A program made the position numbers and the translations under genes. Shown here in pieces: positions 19,352 through 31,206 of a stretch of 64,000 nt of DNA. Every line of letters starts with the position of its first letter. The first letter of the stretch is position 1. This DNA is from Yeosuana sp. (lineage in GTDB: Bacteria > Bacteroidota > Bacteroidia > Flavobacteriales > Flavobacteriaceae), in NCBI GenBank assembly GCA_036525815.1, contig DATCZQ010000184.1, forward strand, positions 39,803 to 103,802, read 5' to 3'. The notes under the pieces were generated by a model. It saw nothing but the letters and a program-made list of their open reading frames with translations. It searched no databases and had not been told where the DNA came from.

Positions 19352-20656
19352 ATGAATAATCTATTTGGGAATCTACTGAGAATATCAATATTTTCATTAT
19401 TTCTTGTGGCGTGTCATTCTAATAAATTAAAAGAAAATAATAAAGAAGCAGTAAATATTGGTATTTATGAAGGTGTTTTTATTGATATAAATGACACCAT
19501 CATTTCCGATAACATCGATCCTAATGTAACAATTGAAACCCATTTATTAAAAAATTTAAGCTTAACTAAAAGAGAAGATTTTTGGGGAGCTAAAAACAAT
19601 TTTCATTTACACGCCATGGGTAGTATCAATGTTCCAGAAAGTAATTATTATTACTTTAAACTTGTAAGCTCTGGAAGTGTGTTATTTAAATTAAACAATA
19701 AAGATTTATTTATTAAAAACCAGAGAATTCGTAAAAAAGAAACAGATAGTGCTAAGACTTATTTGGAAAAAGGTTATACAATTTTTGAGTTTGAATATTT
19801 TCCAGGTTATCAGGATTCTTATCTTGAGTTGGAATGGTCTAAGGACGGAAAGCAGTTCGAAGTAATTCCAGATTCCATTATTGGTAATTTGGACGCCTTT
19901 AGTGTTAAAGATTGGATTGCCCCTGATGAATCAGAGTCAGTTATGGTTCCTGACAATACCCTTACAGAAGCTGAAAAAAAAGATGGTTGGAAACTCTTAT
20001 TTGATGGAAAAACAATGAATGGATGGCATACCTACAATAAGCCTGGAACCATTGGAAGTAAATGGAAGGCTGAGAACAACATGTTATTATTTGAAGGTAG
20101 AAAACGTTTTGAATTTTATGTTGCAGGGCGTAAAATAGAATTAGGACCAGTAAATAAAGTATTAGATGGAGGTGAAGACATTGTTACTGATGATGCCTTT
20201 GAAAATTTCGAATTACATTTAGAATGGAAAATATCTGAAGCGGGCAATAATGGGATCTTTTTTACAGTTCAGGAGAATAAAAAATATAAAGAAAATTGGA
20301 ATACAAGTCCCGAAATGCAGGTTATGGATAATCAAAAACATAAGGATGGACTCATAAATAAGCATAGAGCAGGAGATTTATATGATTTAATTGCTACAGA
20401 TACTATAAGGGTAAAACCTTATGGTAAATGGAATAAGGTTCGTATCATAAAAAATAATGGAAAAGTTGAACAATGGTTAAATGGATATAAAGTAGTTTCC
20501 TATGATTTGAAGTCTAAAGAGTGGAAAGACCTCATATCTAAAAGTAAATTCGCAGATTTACCTGATTTTGCTAATCCGGGATTAGGCAAAATCGGATTTC
20601 AGGATCATGATAATGTAGTGTATTATAAAAATATAAAAATTAAAGTTCTTAAGTAA
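19352..20656 (+). CDS. PA14-like plus DUF1080 fusion lipoprotein
   Basis: lipobox FLVAC; PA14-like beta region (GSINVP..YYFKL..GYTIFEFEY..LELEW); C-terminal LFDGKTMNGW, PEMQVMDN, GKIGFQDH. Confidence 0.78.
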   Translation: MNNLFGNLLRISIFSLFLVACHSNKLKENNKEAVNIGIYEGVFIDINDTIISDNIDPNVTIETHLLKNLSLTKREDFWGAKNNFHLHAMGSINVPESNYYYFKLVSSGSVLFKLNNKDLFIKNQRIRKKETDSAKTYLEKGYTIFEFEYFPGYQDSYLELEWSKDGKQFEVIPDSIIGNLDAFSVKDWIAPDESESVMVPDNTLTEAEKKDGWKLLFDGKTMNGWHTYNKPGTIGSKWKAENNMLLFEGRKRFEFYVAGRKIELGPVNKVLDGGEDIVTDDAFENFELHLEWKISEAGNNGIFFTVQENKKYKENWNTSPEMQVMDNQKHKDGLINKHRAGDLYDLIATDTIRVKPYGKWNKVRIIKNNGKVEQWLNGYKVVSYDLKSKEWKDLISKSKFADLPDFANPGLGKIGFQDHDNVVYYKNIKIKVLK

Positions 20657-21393
20657 TGTTAAAGAAGGTTATAATAACGTTTTCAATGATGTTTTTGGAT
20701 TGTAATCAAATACCAAAGAGACTAGTGTCAAAGGAAAATCAAAGCATTATACAAATCGAATCAGTGCAGAAATCTGATTGGGTCTCTCTTTTTGATGGTA
20801 CTTCTTTTGAAAATTGGCGAGGATATTTAAATATTGCAATGTATCCTGAATGGGTGATTGAAAATAATGCTATGGTTTTCACTCCCGGAAAAAAAGGTAG
20901 GAAGAATATTATTTCAAAAGAAAAATACACCAATTTTATTTTATCACTTGAGTGGAAAATCTCAGAAGGAGGCAACAGCGGTGTTTTTTGGAGTGTTTTT
21001 GAGGACGAAAAATTCCCTGAACCATACCAAACAGGTCCTGAAATTCAGGTGTTAGATAATGAAAGACATCCTGATTCATTTTTGGCGAACGGCACTCGTA
21101 AGGCAGGCTCTATATACGATATGTTGGCATATCCACCTGAATACATTCATCCTGCTGGAGAATGGAATCTCTGTGTACTTGAAATAAACCATCAATCTAA
21201 CCTGGGGAAAGTAACTATGAATAGAGAAGAAACTATAACTTTTCCACTTCATGGATCGAAATGGGAAGAACTGGTATTAAATTCTAAATTTAAAGATTGG
21301 GAAGGTTTTGGGAAACATAAAGCAGGTCACATTGGTTTACAAGACCATGAAAACAAGGTTTCTTATCGTAATATAAAAATAAAGACATTGTAA
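20656..21393 (+). CDS. DUF1080 family protein
   Basis: LFDGTSFENW, GGNSGVF, GPEIQVLDN, GHIGLQDH. Confidence 0.88.
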   Translation: MLKKVIITFSMMFLDCNQIPKRLVSKENQSIIQIESVQKSDWVSLFDGTSFENWRGYLNIAMYPEWVIENNAMVFTPGKKGRKNIISKEKYTNFILSLEWKISEGGNSGVFWSVFEDEKFPEPYQTGPEIQVLDNERHPDSFLANGTRKAGSIYDMLAYPPEYIHPAGEWNLCVLEINHQSNLGKVTMNREETITFPLHGSKWEELVLNSKFKDWEGFGKHKAGHIGLQDHENKVSYRNIKIKTL

Positions 21394-21420
21394 AGGATTA
21401 ATCATTAGACTATTACTAAC

Positions 21421-21451
21421 AAAGGGCTTCAAATATTGAATGCCCTTTTTT
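21421..21451 (+). terminator. intrinsic terminator ending the glycoside island
   Basis: AAAGGGC-TTCAA-ATA-TTGAA-T-GCCCTTT followed by a T tract. Confidence 0.8.
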
Positions 21452-21582
21452 ATATTATTAATAGTTTTCCAAAAAAATACATTATTCCTAATGAATAGTT
21501 CTTTTTAAATAACTTTTGATAATTTTTTTAAAAAAGTAATAGTTTTTACTAGTAGTATTAAATAAAAATATAATTTTACTGT

Positions 21583-21657
21583 ATGAATACATTGAAAAAT
21601 AAAATACGTCCTTCATCTCCCGGATTGCCCGTGCGTAGTAATCGCCGCCGCTTTTAG
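21583..21657 (+). CDS. putative arginine-rich leader peptide MNTLKNKIRPSSPGLPVRSNRRRF
   Basis: ATG at 21583 to TAG at 21657; 5 Arg codons, three of them tandem CGC just before the stop; 230 nt upstream of the arg operon; below the ORF-track length cutoff. Confidence 0.65.
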   Translation: MNTLKNKIRPSSPGLPVRSNRRRF

Positions 21658-21887
21658 TCTTTAGTTAGCTCAATCCATACGTAATTTTAATTTTTTTCAT
21701 CTTGTATAAACTAGCATTCATAACATTTCAAAATATAATTAGTAGGTCAATTAACCACTATTTTATGTGTTATATTTTTCCCCGTCGCCCGTAAGGGTGT
21801 TATTCGTTATTTGAATTAGGTGAGTCCAGTTCATTATCTCCAAAGGATTAATTTTAAATTTTAATAAAAAAATAATAGATACAATAC

Positions 21888-22505
21888 ATGGAAATTGTAA
21901 TTGCTGATAAATCACATAGTATGTACGCAGAGATTATTTGCGAAACCATTTCAGAATCTGCTGCAGTAAGAGGTACTGGTATCGCTAGGCGAACTCCGGA
22001 ATATATCATAACAAAAATGGAAAACGGCAATGCTGTTATTGCTTTAGATGGGGATACTTTCGCAGGTTTTTGTTATATAGAAAAATGGGGTCATGGCAAA
22101 TATGTTGCCAACTCTGGGTTAATTGTACATCCAAACTACAGAAATGCGGGTTTAGCAAAAAAAATTAAACATAAAATATTTGAACATTCAAGAACTAAAT
22201 TTCCGGACGCTAAAATTTTCAGTATTACGACCGGTTTAGCTGTTATGAAAATGAATACTGATTTAGGATATAAACCTGTTCCTTTTTCTGAATTAACAGA
22301 TGATCCTACGTTTTGGGATGGCTGTCAAACCTGTAAAAATTATGATGTGTTAACAAGAACGGAAAGAAAAATGTGTTTGTGTACAGGCATGTTATTTGAT
22401 TCAAAAGCAAAGGATATTAATGAAAAAAAACAAGTGAAGTCAAAAGTGTTTCAAAGATTGAAGCATATCAAAGAAACCATGTTTTTAAAAAAGGATAAGA
22501 AATGA
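21888..22505 (+). CDS. GNAT N-acyltransferase, putative N-acyl(acetyl/succinyl)glutamate synthase
   Basis: GNAT acyl-CoA motif SGLIVHPNYRNAGLAK; C-terminal CQTC and CLC; first gene of the arg operon, overlapping argG by 4 nt. Confidence 0.75.
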   Translation: MEIVIADKSHSMYAEIICETISESAAVRGTGIARRTPEYIITKMENGNAVIALDGDTFAGFCYIEKWGHGKYVANSGLIVHPNYRNAGLAKKIKHKIFEHSRTKFPDAKIFSITTGLAVMKMNTDLGYKPVPFSELTDDPTFWDGCQTCKNYDVLTRTERKMCLCTGMLFDSKAKDINEKKQVKSKVFQRLKHIKETMFLKKDKK

Positions 22506-23686
22506 TTTTAAAGAAAAAATTAGTAATAGCTTATAGTGGCGGTTTAGATACTTCTTATTGTGCAGTCAGTTTATCTAAACAATATGATGTACATGCAGTT
22601 AGCGTTAATACCGGTGGGTTTACGCAAAATGAAATTAATACAATTGAAGCAAATGCCTATAAAATGGGTGTTTCTACGTATAAAAATATTAATGCGGTGC
22701 CTTCATTTTATCAAAAAGTAATCAAGTATTTAGTTTTTGGCAATGTTTTAAAAAATAATACGTATCCCTTATCTGTAAGCGCTGAACGTATTATTCAGGC
22801 TATTGAAATAGTAGAATATGCGAAAAGCATTGATGCAGAATTTATTGCACATGGAAGTACCGGGGCCGGAAATGATCAGGTGCGTTTTGATATGATTTTT
22901 CAGACTTTGGCGCCAAAAATTCAAATAATTACGCCTATTCGTGATAAGAAATTATCCAGACAAGAAGAGATTGACTATTTAAAAGCTAATGGTATAGATA
23001 TGTCATGGGAAAAGGCGAAATACTCTGTTAATAAGGGACTGTGGGGAACGAGTGTTGGCGGACAGGAAACGTTGACTTCAGAAAAACCTTTGCCTAGTGA
23101 AGCCTATCCCTCCCAATTAAAAAATGAAGGAGAAGAAAAGGTAACACTTACGTTTGAAAAGGGAGAATTCCTGGCATTAAATGGTGTGAAAAGTGAACCC
23201 TATAAAAATATTGAATTATTAAATAAAATGGCTTCCGCTTTTGCCATAGGCAGAGATATTCATGTTGGAGACACCATTATTGGTATCAAGGGACGAGTTG
23301 GGTTTGAAGCCGCCGCGGCATTAATTACAATAAAAGCACATCATCTATTAGAAAAGCATACCTTAACAAAATGGCAATTGCAACATAAGGAGTATTTGGC
23401 TGGTTTTTATGGGATGCATTTACACGAAGGGCAGTATTTAGATCCTGTAATGCGAAATATTGAAGCATTCTTACAAAGTAGTCAAGACAAAGTTAGTGGT
23501 GATGTTACCGTAAGTTTAAAACCTTATCACTTTTCCTTAGATGGTATTGTCTCTAAGCATGATTTAATGAATGCTGAGTTTGGAAGTTATGGCGAAGAAA
23601 ATAAGGGCTGGACACCTGATGAAGCCAAAGGGTTTATAAAAATTATAGGAAATCAAAATAAAATCTATCAACAAGTAAACTCATAA
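22502..23686 (+). CDS. argG: argininosuccinate synthase
   Basis: AYSGGLDTS, HGSTGAGNDQVRF, IGIKGRVGFEA. Confidence 0.96.
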   Translation: MILKKKLVIAYSGGLDTSYCAVSLSKQYDVHAVSVNTGGFTQNEINTIEANAYKMGVSTYKNINAVPSFYQKVIKYLVFGNVLKNNTYPLSVSAERIIQAIEIVEYAKSIDAEFIAHGSTGAGNDQVRFDMIFQTLAPKIQIITPIRDKKLSRQEEIDYLKANGIDMSWEKAKYSVNKGLWGTSVGGQETLTSEKPLPSEAYPSQLKNEGEEKVTLTFEKGEFLALNGVKSEPYKNIELLNKMASAFAIGRDIHVGDTIIGIKGRVGFEAAAALITIKAHHLLEKHTLTKWQLQHKEYLAGFYGMHLHEGQYLDPVMRNIEAFLQSSQDKVSGDVTVSLKPYHFSLDGIVSKHDLMNAEFGSYGEENKGWTPDEAKGFIKIIGNQNKIYQQVNS

Positions 23687-23689
23687 ATT

Positions 23690-24667
23690 ATGATACAAGT
23701 TGGGATTATTGGAGGTGCCGGTTATACGGCTGGAGAACTGATTAGATTGCTGATGTTTCATAAAGAAACAGAAATTAATTTTGTTTACAGCACATCCAAT
23801 GCGGGAAACCTAATAAGTAAGGTACATCAAGATTTAGAAGGTAGTTTAAATTTAAAATTTTCGGGAAGTATAAATTCAAATGTAGATGTGTTGTTTTTAT
23901 GTTTAGGTCATGGAAATTCTATTAAGTTTTTAGAAGCAAATACCTTCTCAAAGAACACTAAAATTATTGATCTAGGGAACGATTTTAGATTATTAAAAGA
24001 TAAACAATTCGGTGATAAAACCTTTGTTTATGGTTTGCCTGAACTACAAAGAGACCTTATAAAAAAGGCTCATTACATTGCGAATCCAGGATGTTTTGCA
24101 ACGGCCATTCAATTGGCTTTATTACCCTTGGCAAAGCACAACTTAATTAAGAATGATGTTCATGTAAATGCCGTTACCGGGGCTACTGGCGCGGGTACTT
24201 CATTATCTGAAACAACTCATTTTTCTTGGAGAGACAATAATTTTTCATATTATAAGCCTTTTACGCATCAGCATCTGGGAGAAATCAATCAATCGGTGAA
24301 GCAATTACAAAATGCTTTCAATTCAGAAATTCTTTTTATGCCAAATAGGGGGAATTTTTCAAGAGGAATATTTGCCACAGTTTATACAGATTTTGAAGGA
24401 AGTGTTGAAGAAGCAAAGGCTTTGTATAAAACTTTTTATCAAGAAGCGAAGTTCACATTCGTATCAGATGAAGTATTGCATTTAAAGCAAGTGGTCAATA
24501 CCAATAAATGTTTAATCCATTTACATAAACATAATAATAAGCTTTTAATAACGAGTGTTATTGATAATTTATTAAAAGGAGCTTCTGGGCAAGCCATTCA
24601 AAATATGAATTTAATGTTTGGATTAAATGAATGTGAAGGATTACAATTAAAGGCCAATTATTTTTAA
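23690..24667 (+). CDS. argC: N-acyl-gamma-glutamyl-phosphate reductase
   Basis: GGAGYTAGEL, catalytic ANPGCFAT, TGATGAG, IDNLLKGASGQA. Confidence 0.95.
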   Translation: MIQVGIIGGAGYTAGELIRLLMFHKETEINFVYSTSNAGNLISKVHQDLEGSLNLKFSGSINSNVDVLFLCLGHGNSIKFLEANTFSKNTKIIDLGNDFRLLKDKQFGDKTFVYGLPELQRDLIKKAHYIANPGCFATAIQLALLPLAKHNLIKNDVHVNAVTGATGAGTSLSETTHFSWRDNNFSYYKPFTHQHLGEINQSVKQLQNAFNSEILFMPNRGNFSRGIFATVYTDFEGSVEEAKALYKTFYQEAKFTFVSDEVLHLKQVVNTNKCLIHLHKHNNKLLITSVIDNLLKGASGQAIQNMNLMFGLNECEGLQLKANYF

Positions 24668-24682
24668 ATAAAAAACGAATTA

Positions 24683-25477
24683 ATGAAAATAGCCATCATA
24701 GGAGCAGGAAATTTAGGAAAATCTATTGCTAAAGGATTGATAACAACTAATGCGATCACTACCTTATATCTTACCAGACGAAATGTTGACAGTATTAAGG
24801 ATTTTGAAGGGTATAAGAACATTGTTCTAACCTCAGATAATGCTGAAGCTGTTAAGAATTCAGATATTTTAATTTTTGCGGTACAGCCAGCACATTTAGA
24901 AAAAATACTGATCAATATAAAGCCATTATTACATGATAATCATGTCTTGATATCAACCATCACAGGATTTTCAATTTCTAGAATGGAAAATATTATAGGT
25001 GAAGATAAATTTGTGATCAGAGCCATGCCAAATACAGCGATTTCTGTTGGGAAATCAATGACTTGCTTGTGTAGTAATGAAAAAGGCAAAGGTCGTATAA
25101 AAATAGCAGAAGCCATTTTTAATAGATTAGGAACTTCCATTGAAATTCCAGAAGATAAAATGCAGGCCGCCACAGTTATTTGTGCCAGTGGTATTGCTTT
25201 TTGGATGCGTCTAATTAGGGCTACGACACAAGGCGCTATCCAATTAGGATTTGAGGCCAAAGAAGCTCAGGAATTGGCGATGCACACGTGTTATGGAGCC
25301 GCGAGCCTGCTAATACAATCTGGAAACCATCCAGAACAAGAAATAGATCGTGTTACTACACCAATGGGTTGCACTATAGAAGGATTAAATGAGATGGAGC
25401 ATCAAGGGTTAAGTTCATCACTTATTAAAGGTCTAATCACCTCTTTTGAAAAGATTAATCAAATTAAAAAAAATTAA
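24683..25477 (+). CDS. proC: pyrroline-5-carboxylate reductase
   Basis: IGAGNLG, RAMPN, VTTPMGCTIEGL. Confidence 0.93.
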   Translation: MKIAIIGAGNLGKSIAKGLITTNAITTLYLTRRNVDSIKDFEGYKNIVLTSDNAEAVKNSDILIFAVQPAHLEKILINIKPLLHDNHVLISTITGFSISRMENIIGEDKFVIRAMPNTAISVGKSMTCLCSNEKGKGRIKIAEAIFNRLGTSIEIPEDKMQAATVICASGIAFWMRLIRATTQGAIQLGFEAKEAQELAMHTCYGAASLLIQSGNHPEQEIDRVTTPMGCTIEGLNEMEHQGLSSSLIKGLITSFEKINQIKKN

Positions 25478-25478
25478 A

Positions 25479-26612
25479 ATGCCATTATTTGACGTTTACC
25501 CATTATACAATGTAACCCCAGTCAAAGGGAAAGATGTTTTTGTTTATGATGACAAAGGACTTGAATATTTAGACCTTTATGGAGGCCATGCCGTCATATC
25601 TATTGGTCATTCACATCCTAATTATGTAAAAGCCATCACAAACCAGGTATCCAACCTCGGGTTTTATTCCAATGCGATACAAAACCCAATACAGGTAGAG
25701 CTGGCAAACCGTTTGGAAGAGGTTTCAGGTTGTTCTGGTTATCAGTTATTTTTGTGTAATTCAGGGGCTGAAGCTAATGAAAATGCTTTAAAACTGGCGT
25801 CTTTTAAGACGAATAAAGCCCGCGTTATTGCTTTTAATAATGGGTTTCATGGAAGAACGTCTGCGGCAGTTGCGGCAACAGATAATCCATCAATTAATGC
25901 ACCAATTAACCTACAGCAAAAAGTAACCTTCTTAGCTTTGAACGATATTGAAGGTGTAAAGCGAGAATTAGAAAAGGATGATGTTTGCGCTGTTATTGTC
26001 GAGTTTATTCAAGGAGTAGGAGGATTAGATCAGGGAACGGCTGAGTTTTTTGAACAAGTGGATGGGTTATGTAAATTAAACAACACTTTTTTCATAGCCG
26101 ATGAAGTGCAGTCCGGATATGGGCGATCTGGAAAGTTTTTTGCCTTTCAGCATTATAAGGTAACACCTGATGTTATTTCAATAGCTAAAGGAATGGGTAA
26201 TGGATTTCCAGTTGGTGGCGTATTAATTCATCCAAGTATTGAGGCTAAATACGGTATGTTAGGAACCACTTTTGGAGGAAATCATTTGGCTTGTGCTGCC
26301 GGTTTGGCCGTTTTAAATACTATAGAAGACGAAAACTTGATAGAGAATGTTAATCAGGTTTCTGAGTATTTTATTTCTGAAGCAAAAAAGATTGAACAAA
26401 TAAAAAACATTAAAGGACGCGGTTTAATGATTGGATTGGAATTTGATTTTGAGGTGGCTGAGCTTCGAAAAAAATTGATTTATGAGCATCATATTTTTAC
26501 AGGAGGTGCTTCCAATAAAAAACTCATTAGAATATTGCCGCCTCTTACAGTGACAACAGCGCATATTGACACTTATTTTATGGCATTAAAATCAGCATTA
26601 TTAAATTTTTAA
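25479..26612 (+). CDS. argD: N-acylornithine aminotransferase (class III PLP)
   Basis: NSGAEANE, FHGRT, DEVQSGYGRSG, PLP lysine in SIAKG; ATG at 25479. Confidence 0.93.
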   Translation: MPLFDVYPLYNVTPVKGKDVFVYDDKGLEYLDLYGGHAVISIGHSHPNYVKAITNQVSNLGFYSNAIQNPIQVELANRLEEVSGCSGYQLFLCNSGAEANENALKLASFKTNKARVIAFNNGFHGRTSAAVAATDNPSINAPINLQQKVTFLALNDIEGVKRELEKDDVCAVIVEFIQGVGGLDQGTAEFFEQVDGLCKLNNTFFIADEVQSGYGRSGKFFAFQHYKVTPDVISIAKGMGNGFPVGGVLIHPSIEAKYGMLGTTFGGNHLACAAGLAVLNTIEDENLIENVNQVSEYFISEAKKIEQIKNIKGRGLMIGLEFDFEVAELRKKLIYEHHIFTGGASNKKLIRILPPLTVTTAHIDTYFMALKSALLNF

Positions 26613-26613
26613 A

Positions 26614-27552
26614 ATGAAAAACTTTAGTTCAATAAGTGATATAGAAGATATAAATGCTTGGATTGATGAGGCCAAGAGCCTAAAAGCTAACCCGTATTTA
26701 CATAAGAATTTAGGGAATAACAAGACTATTGGATTGTTCTTTTTTAATTCAAGTTTAAGGACCAGGTTAAGTACTCAAAAGGCGGCTTTAAATTTAGGAA
26801 TGAATACCATGGTTATGAATGTTTCTGGAGATGCATGGGGTATAGAGTTTGAAGACGGAACCATTATGAATGGCACAACTGCAGAGCACATAAAAGAAGC
26901 GGCAGCTGTAGTTTCTCAATATTGTGATATCATTGCAGTCAGGGCATTTCCAACATTAACTGATAAAGTAAAAGATGAAAGTGAATACGTTTTAAAAGCA
27001 TTTATGAAATATGCTACAGTTCCCGTAGTTAATATGGAGAGTGCAACTGGTCATCCATTACAAGGGTTTACAGATGCTATGACTATTTCAGAATATGCGC
27101 AATCAAAAAAGCCAAAAGTAGTTTTAAGTTGGGCGCCTCATGTGAAGTCATTACCACATGCAGTGGCCAATAGTTTTGTTCAGGCTATGCAAAAAATGGA
27201 GGTGGAATTTGTCATCACGCATCCCAAAGGGTATGAATTAAATCCTCAAATTGTTGGAGATACGCCTGTTGTTTATAATCAAGAAGAAGCTTTTAAAAAG
27301 GCTGATTTTGTATATGTAAAAAACTGGAGCAGTTATAAAGATTATGGAAAAGTGTTGAATACAGATCCAAAATGGATGATTACCCAAAATAAATTAGGTC
27401 ATGCGAAATTTATGCATTGCCTGCCTGTTAGGCGTAACCTCATAGTTGAAGATGCTGTTTTAGATAGTAAAAATTCACTGGTTATTCAACAAGCAAATAA
27501 CAGAACCTTTGCAGCACAATTAGTGTTGAAAAAACTTTTAGAAAATGCCTAA
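26614..27552 (+). CDS. argF: N-acyl (probably N-succinyl) ornithine carbamoyltransferase, ArgF' type
   Basis: SSLRT instead of the classical STRT, GHPLQ, HCLP; Bacteroidetes/Xanthomonas acyl-OTCase pattern. Confidence 0.9.
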   Translation: MKNFSSISDIEDINAWIDEAKSLKANPYLHKNLGNNKTIGLFFFNSSLRTRLSTQKAALNLGMNTMVMNVSGDAWGIEFEDGTIMNGTTAEHIKEAAAVVSQYCDIIAVRAFPTLTDKVKDESEYVLKAFMKYATVPVVNMESATGHPLQGFTDAMTISEYAQSKKPKVVLSWAPHVKSLPHAVANSFVQAMQKMEVEFVITHPKGYELNPQIVGDTPVVYNQEEAFKKADFVYVKNWSSYKDYGKVLNTDPKWMITQNKLGHAKFMHCLPVRRNLIVEDAVLDSKNSLVIQQANNRTFAAQLVLKKLLENA

Positions 27553-28327
27553 AGAAAAATTATCGATAGTAAAAATTGGAGGGAATATCATTGAAGATGA
27601 TGTTTCATTAAAATCATTTCTTGACATTTTTTCAGCTTTGGAAGGCAAGAAAATTTTAGTTCATGGCGGCGGTAAACGAGCGACAAGTGTGGCATCTAAA
27701 TTAGGAATTGAATCGAAAATGGTCAATGGCAGAAGGATTACTGATGCTCAAACCTTAGAGATAATTACCATGGTTTACGGTGGTTTAGTCAATAAAAATA
27801 TAGTGGCCCAACTACAGGCTTTAAATATTGATGCTATTGGATTAACCGGTGCTGATGCAAATACTATTTATTCAGAAAAAAGACCTGTAAAAGATATTGA
27901 TTATGGTTTTGTTGGTGACGTAAAAAAAGTAAATCATCAATCAGTTGATAAATTAATTGAAGCTGGTTTTACGCCCGTTTTTTGTGCGATTACCCATGAT
28001 GGTCATGGACAGTTATTAAATACGAACGCCGATACCATTACTTCACAAGTGGCTGTGGGTATGAGCCAAATTTATGAAACGGCCATTTATTATTGTTTTG
28101 AATTGAATGGCGTTTTAAACGATATTAATGATAAAGATTCGGTTATCAAGCATATTAATTTGGCCAGTTATAGCACTTTGTTAAAAGAAGGTATTATTGC
28201 TGAAGGCATGCTTCCTAAACTTGAAAATTGTTTTGATGCCTTAAAAAATGGGGTTGGAACAATAAACATGGGTAATACCTCAATGCTCACAAAAGAAAAT
28301 GATAATTTTACAAGAATAACTTTATAA
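27545..28327 (+). CDS. argB: N-acylglutamate kinase
   Basis: VKIGG, VHGGGK, GRRITD, NTNAD, GMLPKL. Confidence 0.93.
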   Translation: MPKEKLSIVKIGGNIIEDDVSLKSFLDIFSALEGKKILVHGGGKRATSVASKLGIESKMVNGRRITDAQTLEIITMVYGGLVNKNIVAQLQALNIDAIGLTGADANTIYSEKRPVKDIDYGFVGDVKKVNHQSVDKLIEAGFTPVFCAITHDGHGQLLNTNADTITSQVAVGMSQIYETAIYYCFELNGVLNDINDKDSVIKHINLASYSTLLKEGIIAEGMLPKLENCFDALKNGVGTINMGNTSMLTKENDNFTRITL

Positions 28328-28328
28328 T

Positions 28329-29396
28329 ATGACGCTATCTGAATTAACCAATGATGCTATATTTCTATTAAAAGAGTTGATAGAAACCGAGTCGTTTTCG
28401 TCTGATGAAGACAAATCGGCATTGTTAATTGAAGATTGGTTTAAACGTTATAAGGTAGACTATAAAAGGACAAAAAATAATGTATGGGCAGTTAATAAAA
28501 ATTTTGATGAACGGAAACCAACCTTATTACTTAATTCTCATCATGATACGGTAAAACCAAATGCTGCCTACACTAAAGATCCATTTAAAGCCATTGTTGA
28601 AGACGGGAAATTATACGGTTTAGGCAGTAATGATGCGGGCGGATGTTTGGTGTCTTTAATAGCGTTGTTTACTTATTTTTATGATAAAATTGATTTAAAA
28701 TACAATCTTGTTATAGTGGCTTCAGCTGAAGAAGAAAGTAGCGGACCAGATGGACTAAACAGTATGCTGCCAATTATACCGAAAGTGGACGTAGCTATTG
28801 TAGGAGAACCAACCTTAATGAATTTGGCAATAGCTGAAAAAGGATTGGTAGTATTTGATGCCAAAGTAACTGGTACACCAAGTCATGCCGCACATCCAAA
28901 CGAAAATAATTGTATCTATAACACGATTAAAGTGTTACAATGGTTTAAGGACTTTAAGTTTGAAAAATCATCTGAAGTTTTGGGCGATGTTAAATTAACG
29001 GTGACGCAGATTAATGGAGGAACGCAGCATAATGTGGTGCCTGCAGAAGTTGATTTGGTAATTGATGTTCGCGTCAATGATAAATACACCAATAAAGAAG
29101 TTGCTGAAATATTGCAAAAGCTGGCACCTTGCAGCAGTATTACGCCACGAAGTTTAAGATTGAATTCATCATCAATTCCTGTTAATCACGAGTTGGTAAA
29201 AGCAGGAATAGCCATTGGCAGAAGTACCTATGGATCACCAACATTATCTGATCAGGCTGTTTTAACCTGTCCGTCCTTGAAATTAGGTCCAGGTGATAGT
29301 ACGCGCTCACATTCAGCTGATGAATTTATTTATATCAATGAAATTGAAGAAGGCATAAAAATTTATGTTGAATTGTTGAATCGAGTCATCGCATAA
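28329..29396 (+). CDS. argE: M20-family N-acyl-ornithine/citrulline deacylase
   Basis: NSHHDTV, GLGSNDAGG, AEEE, GEPT, HSADE; position inside the arg operon. Confidence 0.85.
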   Translation: MTLSELTNDAIFLLKELIETESFSSDEDKSALLIEDWFKRYKVDYKRTKNNVWAVNKNFDERKPTLLLNSHHDTVKPNAAYTKDPFKAIVEDGKLYGLGSNDAGGCLVSLIALFTYFYDKIDLKYNLVIVASAEEESSGPDGLNSMLPIIPKVDVAIVGEPTLMNLAIAEKGLVVFDAKVTGTPSHAAHPNENNCIYNTIKVLQWFKDFKFEKSSEVLGDVKLTVTQINGGTQHNVVPAEVDLVIDVRVNDKYTNKEVAEILQKLAPCSSITPRSLRLNSSSIPVNHELVKAGIAIGRSTYGSPTLSDQAVLTCPSLKLGPGDSTRSHSADEFIYINEIEEGIKIYVELLNRVIA

Positions 29397-29431
29397 ACAA
29401 CTCAACGAATAAACACATAAACATTAACGAA

Positions 29432-30706
29432 ATGAAACTCTGGGACAAAGGCATATCAATAGATAAAAGAATTGAACAATTTACTGTTGGAAATGACAGA
29501 GAGATTGATATTCATATCGCGAAGTACGATGTCATTGCATCCAGAGCGCATGCTAAAATGCTCAAGAAAATTGGGATTCTTACGGCAAATGAATTGGTAG
29601 AATTGCTAACGGGTTTAAAAAAACTTGAAGACCAAATAGATAACGGCACCTTTGTAATTGAGGCACAGTTTGAAGATGTACATTCTAAAATCGAGTTCGA
29701 GCTTACTAAAACCTTAGGAGATGTAGGGAAAAAAATCCATACAGCGCGTTCAAGAAACGATCAGGTTTTAGTGGCATTGCAATTATATTACAAAGAGAAT
29801 TTAGGCACTGTAAAACTCAAAACACAAAGCCTTTTTGAAACTCTTTTAGGATTAGCAGATAGGTATAAAGACAAAGTGCTGCCCGGATACACCCATCTTC
29901 AGGTGGCAATGCCATCATCATTTGGGTTGTGGTTTTCAGCCTATGCTGAGGTGCTGATCGATGATGTCTATTTATTAAATGCCGCTTTAAAAACAGTGGA
30001 TCAAAATCCATTAGGTTCTGCTGCCGGTTATGGAAGTTCCTTTCCTATAGATAGAGAATTGACTACCAAAGACATGAATTTTTCAACCCTAAAATACAAT
30101 GTGGTAGCGGCTCAAATGAGCCGAGGTAAAAGTGAACGCACCATTGCTGCAGGTTTAGGCGGTTTATGCAATACACTCTCACGTTTTGCCATGGATATAT
30201 GTTTGTATATGAGTCAGAATTTTGGGTTTATTTCTTTTCCAGATGAATTAACAACAGGTAGTAGTATTATGCCGCATAAAAAGAATCCGGATGTGTTTGA
30301 ATTGATTCGTGGTAAGTGCAACAAAATACAGGCTTTACAAACCGAAATGTTATTAATCACTAACAATTTACCAAGTGGTTACCACAGAGATTTTCAGTTG
30401 TTAAAGGAGAATATGATTGCTGCTTTTGAAGAGGTAAAAGACATTCTGGATATTTTTAATTACTCCATTCAACAAATTATCGTGAAAGATGTTGATGTTC
30501 ATAATGACTTATATAAATACCTTTTTACAGTAGATAATATAAATAGCTTGGTAGTTGAAGGCCAAAGTTTCAGAGAAGCCTATCAAAAAATTGGTGGACA
30601 AGTACAAGAGGGCACTTACAAACCTGATATCTCAAAAAAGCACACCCATGTAGGCAGTATTCATAACTTATGTTTAGATAAGATTAGGGCTAAGTTTCCA
30701 TTATAG
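29432..30706 (+). CDS. argH: argininosuccinate lyase
   Basis: HTARSRNDQ, PGYTHLQ, signature TGSSIMPHKKNPD. Confidence 0.97.
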   Translation: MKLWDKGISIDKRIEQFTVGNDREIDIHIAKYDVIASRAHAKMLKKIGILTANELVELLTGLKKLEDQIDNGTFVIEAQFEDVHSKIEFELTKTLGDVGKKIHTARSRNDQVLVALQLYYKENLGTVKLKTQSLFETLLGLADRYKDKVLPGYTHLQVAMPSSFGLWFSAYAEVLIDDVYLLNAALKTVDQNPLGSAAGYGSSFPIDRELTTKDMNFSTLKYNVVAAQMSRGKSERTIAAGLGGLCNTLSRFAMDICLYMSQNFGFISFPDELTTGSSIMPHKKNPDVFELIRGKCNKIQALQTEMLLITNNLPSGYHRDFQLLKENMIAAFEEVKDILDIFNYSIQQIIVKDVDVHNDLYKYLFTVDNINSLVVEGQSFREAYQKIGGQVQEGTYKPDISKKHTHVGSIHNLCLDKIRAKFPL

Positions 30707-30849: not shown

Positions 30850-31206
30850 ATGACCGATTTAGTTGAAGTAAAACCATCTCTACTCCATGGAAAAGGTGTT
30901 TTTGCATTGCGTAATATTGAAAAAGGAGAAGTACTGGTTAAGAGCCATATGGCACTGATACATGTCAATGAAAATTTACCAGAAGTGTTGGCAACACTTC
31001 AATTTCCATGGACAGAAGAGTATGATGCCATTTGTATCAGTGATGCGGGTAGCTTTTTTAATCATAGCAGTTCACCAAATGCCGAAGTTAAAACGCGAGA
31101 TTTTGATAATTTAATTCAAACTTTTATTGCGAAAACGGCTGTTGTTAAAGGAACCGAAATTACTATTTACTACAACGATGCTTTTGAGGATTTTGTTAAA
31201 GGTTAG
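30850..31206 (+). CDS. stand-alone SET-domain protein
   Basis: 118 aa; HGKGVFA, FFNHSSSPN, GTEITIYY; no post-SET cysteines. Confidence 0.88.
   Translation: MTDLVEVKPSLLHGKGVFALRNIEKGEVLVKSHMALIHVNENLPEVLATLQFPWTEEYDAICISDAGSFFNHSSSPNAEVKTRDFDNLIQTFIAKTAVVKGTEITIYYNDAFEDFVKG

Follow-up and report, generated by a model that had tools for sequence, protein, structure and literature searches.

An arginine-codon leader conserved upstream of the arg operon in Flavobacteriaceae, a candidate tandem ribosome-stalling attenuator

Organization of the arg locus

In the analyzed window, a 64,000-nt stretch of a Yeosuana sp. contig (Flavobacteriaceae), an arginine biosynthesis operon is preceded by a 494-nt intergenic region of 26% G+C. 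The operon is headed by a GNAT gene belonging to PF00583, and its argF' is of the acyl-ornithine carbamoyltransferase type; by GNAT identity, the organism is close to Gaetbulibacter (97% to G. aquiaggeris). A proC gene, encoding pyrroline-5-carboxylate reductase, lies between argC and argD (24683–25477), so that proline synthesis would be co-regulated by a sensor responding to arginine only. The gene ahead of the arg leader (20656–21393) encodes a 3-keto-disaccharide hydrolase family protein (PF06439) and ends in its own terminator-like hairpin near 21423–21450, while the gene immediately 3' of argH (30850–31206) specifies a 118-aa protein with a SET domain (PF00856). The leader and the operon comprise the following features, numbered by window position.

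21571–21578, + strand: Bacteroidota-type -7 promoter box TAATTTTA (consensus TAnnTTTG), 4 nt 5' of the ORF1 ATG
21583–21657, + strand: ORF1, first leader peptide, 24 codons; conserved frame with in-frame indels
21594–21609, + strand: 5' arm (A-rich plus ACGU) of the outer helix H1 of hairpin T1, ORF1 codons 4–9; MFE fold
21622–21627, + strand: 5' arm GGATTG of the inner helix H2 of T1, ORF1 codons 14–15; MFE fold
21671–21676, + strand: 3' arm CAATCC of H2, 14 nt past the ORF1 stop; MFE fold
21679–21697, + strand: 3' arm ACGUAAUUUUAA of H1, continuing into the U7 tract; candidate stage 1 terminator of the intrinsic type
21740–21760, + strand: hairpin P0 (UAGU-A-GGU / ACC-ACUA), 5 nt 5' of ORF2; predicted fold
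21765–21794, + strand: ORF2, 9-codon mini-frame MCYIFPRRP-stop (family consensus M-R-R-x-F-P-R-R-P-stop), ending in the P1 loop
21786–21799, + strand: hairpin P1 (CGCCC-GUAA-GGGUG); the 5' arm is formed by the last Arg and Pro codons and the stop codon lies in the loop
21800–21811, + strand: U-rich linker UUAUUCGUUAUU, 12–16 nt over the family
21812–21833, + strand: hairpin P2, with a covarying lower stem, a bulged A, two G-C pairs and a pentaloop UGNGU; top UAGGUGAGUCC
21888–30706, + strand: GNAT-argG-argC-proC-argD-argF'-argB-argE-argH operon, putative target of leader regulation

The first leader frame and its promoter

ORF1 runs from an ATG at 21583 to a TAG at 21655–21657 and encodes MNTLKNKIRPSSPGLPVRSNRRRF. 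Five of its codons specify Arg, namely codon 9 (CGT), codon 18 (CGT) and codons 21–23 (CGC-CGC-CGC), the last three directly preceding the final sense codon. A sequence-only reading of the window had singled out this frame as the leader peptide of a candidate ribosome-mediated arginine attenuator, and its description agrees with the sequence: the frame is a GC-rich patch (44% G+C vs 26% for the surrounding intergenic region), and its stop lies 230 nt before the operon, whose GNAT gene starts at 21888. When the intergenic region was shuffled 3000 times, an ATG-initiated frame of 15–40 codons with an RRR run arose in just 4 cases. CGC is rare among the Arg codons of this genome (8.5%, with AGA at 49%), and CGT and CGC together make up 28% of the Arg codons in its long genes. 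Decoding of CGY normally falls to tRNA-Arg(ACG), which is encoded by one of the four tRNA-Arg genes found in the genome.

The same reading had proposed looking for a conserved Arg-rich short frame in orthologous leaders, and the comparison was positive. An ORF1-like frame with a fixed start position is present in 104 of the 150 arg leaders compared in Flavobacteriaceae, spanning dozens of genera, and it sits at the arg operon in every genome examined. Members of this family have 22–24 codons, a mean of 5.07 Arg and a C-terminal RR(R) run, with CGY accounting for 482 of 527 Arg codons (91%). Gaps within the aligned frame are 3 or 6 nt long, those past the stop are of any length, and the third positions of the leader Arg codons vary between C and T. 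The sole start change seen, ATG to GTG in one genus, leaves the frame intact. The peptide motifs MKNLKNKIR and PGLPVR recur among the ORF1 products. The conservation of ORF1 is far beyond chance.

The -7-like box that the sequence-only reading placed 4 nt before the ATG was recovered at the same or nearly the same spacing in most relatives: of 104 loci, 85 have a TAnnTTT[GAT] box ending 4 nt ahead of the ORF1 start, and 12 have one ending 5 nt ahead. In the promoter strings of Flavobacterium psychrophilum, as laid out in the supplement of a published study (PMC9723704), transcription appears to start about 3–5 nt past the box. The fixed spacing of 4–5 nt in 97 of 104 leaders makes a leaderless transcript plausible, in keeping with the earlier suggestion of leaderless translation; judged from box spacing, the ORF1 transcript would be leaderless or carry a 1-nt leader.

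Assembled RNA-seq contigs of a relative with the same leader architecture inform on co-transcription rather than on the transcription start site or attenuation. Single contigs span from upstream of ORF1 to more than 10 kb into the operon, so the leader and the arg genes are co-transcribed in this relative. The contigs start 40–60 nt 5' of the ORF1 ATG at positions that differ between runs, and hence provide neither support for a leaderless start nor its position. For the window organism itself, the expression data consist of low-depth metagenome-type contigs only.

Two leader architectures

The distribution of the leader was assessed in a family sample of 121 genera, represented by one genome each, of which 80 carry GNAT; upstream DNA was compared among these GNAT-bearing genera and 80 closer relatives. 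Two architectures were distinguished. In type A, which is that of the window, ORF1 occupies roughly -300 to -225 relative to the GNAT start (e.g., MKNLKNKIRCSxPGLPVRNRRRxF), and the 9-codon M-R-R-x-F-P-R-R-P-stop frame follows at about -120 to -86. In type B, a single ORF of approximately 27 codons, M...APVRPFxRRRRP-stop, spans about -170 to -87 and has its stop in the P1 loop; here, the -7 box ends 7–8 nt before the ORF start. About one third of the arg-operon genera thus carry the downstream core alone, read by one 27-codon, putatively leaderless ORF.

ORF1 is embedded in a predicted terminator-like hairpin

The unconstrained MFE fold of the leader pairs AAAATACGT (21601–21609) with ACGTAATTTT (21679–21688) and GGATTG with CAATCC, and the resulting hairpin T1, with a predicted energy of -13.6 kcal/mol, ends in the U7 (T7) tract at 21691–21697. 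In full, H1 joins 21594–21609 to 21679–21696, so that its 3' side includes most of the U7 tract. Both pairings had been pointed out in the sequence-only reading, together with the T7 tract and the composition of 21658–21740 (13 C and 5 G); all are present as described, and the pairings proved to be conserved with compensatory changes and followed by the U tract. The first Arg codon of ORF1, codon 9, falls within the 5' arm of H1. According to these folds, ORF1 is embedded in its own terminator-like hairpin.

Over 38 distinct type A leaders, H1 is paired in 93–95% of cases, with compensatory changes. H2 shows double changes at all five core pairs, and 73–77% of its cells are paired, a lower value because the register varies. 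The ACGT and T runs of the T1 3' side are invariant or almost so in the alignment. A covariance model of T1, R2, built from alignment A2, matched 39 of the 100 loci searched, every one of type A. In the R2 alignment, which is fitted to the model on which its pair counts therefore rest, 87.7% of cells pair compared with at most 57% for slid registers, double changes occur at 14 of the 22 T1 pairs, and the observed values were reached in none of 500 shuffles.

To follow the effect of a stalled ribosome on T1, parts of the leader were masked in the folds. A ribosome at codon 9 abolishes H1 and one at codon 18 abolishes H2; with the ribosome at codons 21–23 or at the stop, both helices are thermodynamically possible, so that there an attenuator would rely on steric exclusion. 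Conserved blocks lie between T1 and P0 in the window (21698–21740) and its type A relatives: CAUAGUGUCCAAAA follows the U tract in the relatives, and (G/A)CAUUUCAAAAU precedes P0.

ORF1 and T1 could also be regarded as an independent small gene that specifies either a 24-aa peptide or a small RNA ended by a separate terminator, leaving control of the operon to the downstream core alone. In favor of this, ORF1 comes with a promoter of its own and with a U7 hairpin resembling a terminator, and type B genera do without it. From T1 to the operon, however, no further conserved block resembling a promoter stands out, and the single RNA contigs of the type A relative cross T1 into the operon. The Arg-codon content and the position of the frame within the hairpin are also what an attenuator needs, and ORF1 is located at the arg operon in all genomes examined. 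We consider an independent gene highly improbable.

A conserved core of ORF2, P1 and P2

A core made up of ORF2, P1, the linker and P2 (21765–21833) lies 110 nt 3' of ORF1 and is better conserved than ORF1. On this comparative evidence, it would represent a further stage of the leader, more widely conserved than the elements that the sequence-only reading had described. Ahead of it, a hairpin is predicted at the position of P0 in 98 of 113 loci, with many and varied stem sequences; in the single-ORF leaders of type B, P0 falls inside the ORF. P0 is possibly a pause hairpin.

An in-frame ATG-initiated ORF reaching the core stop is present in 93 of 113 loci (54 short and 39 long), and the other 20 have no ATG in frame, which renders translation of the short ORF2 uncertain. 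The short ORF2 of type A may be a remnant of the ORF seen in type B. CGT and CGC constitute 330 of the 349 Arg codons of the core frames (~95%). The last frame ends in CGY-CGC-CCG-TAA in type A and type B alike, and a Pro-stop end is found in more than 90% of the leaders.

P1 is a stem of 4–5 bp with a conserved G.U pair and a predicted energy of -7.9 kcal/mol. The linker bases adjoining its stem are not consistently U, and with this imperfect U tail P1 is, as modeled, a poor intrinsic terminator. Between the ORF and the first gene, intrinsic terminator features thus amount to the conserved predicted hairpin T1 with its U7 tract and to the short, imperfectly tailed P1. In three genera, a C-G to A-U double change in P1 coincides with a Pro to Thr replacement in the frame, and in some genera the frame runs beyond P1; both observations place the constraint on the hairpin.

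These features of P1 bear on the possibility that a nascent peptide senses free arginine or an intermediate and arrests the ribosome at R-R-P-stop or within ORF1, thereby setting the outcome for the RNA or for Rho. TnaC arrests in a Pro-stop context, where termination is also slow, and the prevalence of Pro-stop at the end of the core frame would suit such a peptide, as would the recurring ORF1 motifs and a C-rich, G-poor leader in a genome that encodes Rho. Family-wide, however, the peptide sequence shows no conservation: type B ORFs vary freely toward their N termini, and in ORF1 variants, for instance ...YVFRRLPASNPRRRF or ...PSSPGFRASITRRSF, it is the RNA arms that are retained and not the residues. 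Pro is replaced by Thr where P1 compensates, and frames pass P1 in some genera. Runs of 3–5 cognate codons are, moreover, a hallmark of starvation sensing, and a ligand-dependent arrest that blocks Rho would activate a biosynthetic operon when arginine is abundant, the reverse of the sign required. An arrest peptide is accordingly very improbable here.

The P2 hairpin

The lower stem of P2 shows double changes at six pairs, with 95% of cells paired in an alignment of 64 genera (A1). Its top matches GGTGNG[TC]CC in 64 of 70 loci, an invariance that in A1 is partly circular because the alignment was anchored on this motif. In three loci off the pattern, the second G-C pair is replaced by A-U in a compensatory manner. 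No alignment column shows notable mutual information with the variable loop base of P2 that would indicate a pairing partner.

The P2 top, AGGUGA(G)UCC, is nearly complementary to the 3' tail typical of bacterial 16S rRNA, GGAUCACCU. The 16S 3' end is absent from this assembly, and with an assumed tail the duplex reaches -12.7 kcal/mol, within the top 0.3% of random 15-mers. A function of P2 as a Shine-Dalgarno mimic was given low odds, as three genera weaken this duplex by the compensatory G-C to A-U change in the top; Bacteroidota otherwise avoid Shine-Dalgarno pairing. Two further candidates were rejected. The G-poor stretch past P2 was considered as a rut site, but its G depletion of 6.7% is not diagnostic, because G-poor start regions are general in Bacteroidota. 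An ermC-like translational switch, in which the U-rich linker would mask the GNAT start, has a predicted pairing of 0.16, below the value of 0.21 that a shuffled start region gives.

The near-invariant P2 top on a covarying stem, reminiscent of ligand- or protein-binding RNAs, raises the question of an element that acts as RNA only, with P1-linker-P2 and perhaps T1 binding a metabolite or a regulatory protein and the frames being incidental or relics. The cores lacking an in-frame ATG would be compatible with it, and the conserved N-terminal codons of ORF1 double as helix H1. GCAU may also pair with the AUGC of ORF2 in some type A leaders: a GCAU...AUGC helix over the ORF2 start appears in some of their folds, its tabulation being too noisy to count, and the (G/A)CAUUUCAAAAU block may pair with ORF2 AUG(C/U). 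An RNA-only element, however, would not explain why ORF1 indels come in threes, why C/U changes at third positions keep Arg and CGY reaches 91–95% compared with 28% in genes, why the start codon is fixed relative to the promoter and changes only from ATG to GTG, or why type B leaders keep an open frame of ~27 codons from the promoter to the P1 loop. Nor is there an Rfam match: cmscan of the Rfam covariance models, leader, T-box and riboswitch families included, against 21300–22000, at E values up to 10, returned two chance-level matches only. As the whole story an RNA-only element is thus very unlikely, although P2 could be such a site atop a leader-peptide switch.

A related proposal sees in P1-linker-P2 not just a passive terminator but a novel, family-specific structured RNA, with a trans factor recognizing the P2 top (A-GG-UGNGU-CC); this factor could be an RNA-binding regulator, an arginine-pathway metabolite or the ribosome itself. 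The near-invariant P2 loop has no role in an attenuator model, and we regard this proposal as rather unlikely.

Distribution of the core across and beyond the family

A model of the core, R1, gave one match per genome in 76 of the 121 genera, and these matches sit at the arg operon, save one weak match inside a coding region. In the window organism, the single match in the genome is at 21772–21839, and P2 is unique in the genome. Outside the family, no convincing R1 match was found in 400 genomes of the phylum. In one genus, the first gene past the R1 leader is not GNAT but an unrelated one encoding 194 aa, and argG comes next (locus L181, 554–1138).

Five loci of a large genus of the same family, g122 (L183–L186 and L189), and two of a neighbouring family, f2 (L188 and L190), have GNAT-argG but lack both the R1 core and any Arg-rich leader. 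The f2 loci have repeated TTAGCAAAT-like words upstream, perhaps an operator. In family f3 of the same order, a different Arg-rich leader ORF, MKRPNAHSLTFSTLLRRRRPRALA, lies in a G+C-rich leader ahead of GNAT-argG, without P2 (L187, 647–721). With the exception of genus g122, Flavobacteriaceae that have the operon carry, as judged from these comparisons, a conserved putative Arg-codon leader.

Absence of ArgR and other leader peptides in the genome

In textbooks, bacterial arginine biosynthesis is under the control of the ArgR repressor. The sequence-only reading had noted that no argR lies in the window; the absence extends to the whole genome (99.99% complete) and to all 121 genera of the sample (g1–g121), where no ArgR (PF01316) was detected, in a search with a positive Bacteroides thetaiotaomicron control and with the g122 and f2 genomes outside the sample. 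The lack of ArgR, the anatomy of the leader, its conservation and its link to the arg operon are direct observations on these genomes.

Attenuation through leader peptides has been described for operons of Trp, His, Leu, Thr, Phe and Ile/Val. Two unannotated leader peptides of this kind were found in the same genome, a His leader MNFIQSHHHHFQICTQAK on contig C26 near 13314 (+) and a Trp leader MNTILNNTWWWCFKKINFVK on contig C4 near 13550 (+), which indicates that leader-peptide control is in use there. Each has a strong hairpin followed by U6, with -16.6 kcal/mol for His and -16.9 kcal/mol for Trp. The predicted terminators of the arg leader, T1 as well as P1, are much weaker in comparison.

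Proposed mechanism

We hypothesize that the leader is a tandem ribosome-stalling attenuator that senses charged Arg-tRNA and controls read-through into the arg operon, replacing ArgR, and we estimate the probability of this reading at about three in four. The attenuator interpretation of the sequence-only reading is supported by the comparative data. We infer the transcription start, the translation of both frames, ribosome stalling and both termination steps from the conserved sequence and predicted folds, and the steps below are worded accordingly.

In stage 1, the transcript would begin at or beside the ORF1 AUG. ORF1 codons 4–16 would form the 5' arms of T1, with the 3' arms past the stop and extending into U7. 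When Arg-tRNA(ACG) is plentiful, the ribosome would complete ORF1 and depart, T1 would fold and RNA polymerase would terminate. When it is scarce, the ribosome would stall at the CGY codons (9, 18 and 21–23) located in T1, cover or sterically block its 5' arms, and allow the polymerase to read on. A separate antiterminator helix would not be required in this stage. No conserved alternative partner for the terminator arms was found in folds, alifold or masked folds, which leads us to favor direct occlusion by the ribosome; a candidate GCGYCGU/ACGUCGC pairing is missing from the clade of the window organism.

In stage 2, a ribosome stalled on the CGY codons of the R-R-P-stop frame would hold P1 open. 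Once the ribosome has gone, P1 would close and, together with the U-rich linker and P2, stop or abort transcription, either by weak intrinsic termination or pausing, for which the linker could serve as a pause site, or by Rho loading on the bared C-rich leader. Because P1 is unfolded by a terminating ribosome as well, the distinction in this stage would have to be kinetic.

Comparison with known systems

The arg leader resembles the classical attenuators (trpL, hisL, leuL, thrL, pheL and ilvL), which likewise combine a short leader ORF, tandem codons for the end product and a hairpin followed by U residues, and which in Bacteroidota include the Bacteroid-trp leader; ilvE, hisG and trp leaders are among those reported in F. 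psychrophilum (PMC9723704). Short ORFs are present here as ORF1 (104 loci) and the ORF2 frame (93 loci), and cognate codons are clustered in both architectures (5 Arg in 24 codons with RRR in ORF1, RRR(R)P in type B). Unlike in the classical systems, the cognate amino acid is arginine, the ORF sits inside the putative terminator hairpin and a mutually exclusive 2:3 antiterminator helix was not found. The arg leader further differs in being apparently leaderless, in its two tandem stages and in the extra conserved hairpin P2.

Attenuation of pyrBI senses UTP through polymerase pausing and coupling. As in that system, the ribosome itself, rather than an alternative helix, would block the terminator hairpin in the arg leader; unlike in pyrBI, the signal would be stalling at Arg codons. 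With tnaC (PMC8429421) and speFL, the arg leader shares an ORF with Pro-stop or an arrest at its end by a C-rich leader, where a stalled ribosome could mask a Rho site. In those systems, a conserved peptide senses free ligand and the operon is on at high ligand, whereas the arg leader peptide is not conserved, its cognate codons are in tandem and the required sign is opposite. The conserved peptide that characterizes the arrest-peptide class (TnaC, SpeFL and fungal AAP) was not found, as residues vary outside the Arg run.

An upstream ORF of Staphylococcus aureus, rbfL, senses arginine limitation via Arg codons of one tRNA species; it uses the rare AGA/AGG codons and occludes the ribosome-binding site of a biofilm regulator, repressing its translation (PMC13009471). 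The arg leader is similar as a bacterial upstream ORF that would sense arginine limitation, but it uses CGY codons and precedes a biosynthesis operon. ArgR and its ARG box serve the same pathway and are kept by Bacteroides, whereas the ArgR gene is without trace in this genome and the 121 genera. The sequence-only reading knew of no described arg attenuator in this family, and in agreement with this, no bacterial arg-operon leader peptide was found described in a full-text literature search or in Rfam.

Significance

If the proposed attenuator operates, an ecologically important marine and soil family without ArgR would use an Arg-codon leader instead. Its design would be unusual, combining an apparently leaderless mRNA, an ORF within its own terminator, the lack of an antiterminator, serial stages and the near-invariant P2. 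It offers a testable case for the coupling of SD-independent, leaderless translation to transcription control in Bacteroidota, for which tRNA isoacceptor serves as the sensor, given a CGY-only leader in an AGA-rich genome, and for the partner of P2. The models R1 and R2 annotate a previously unannotated regulatory element in hundreds of genomes. Should P2 be read by a trans factor, the arg operon would integrate tRNA charging with a second input via P2.
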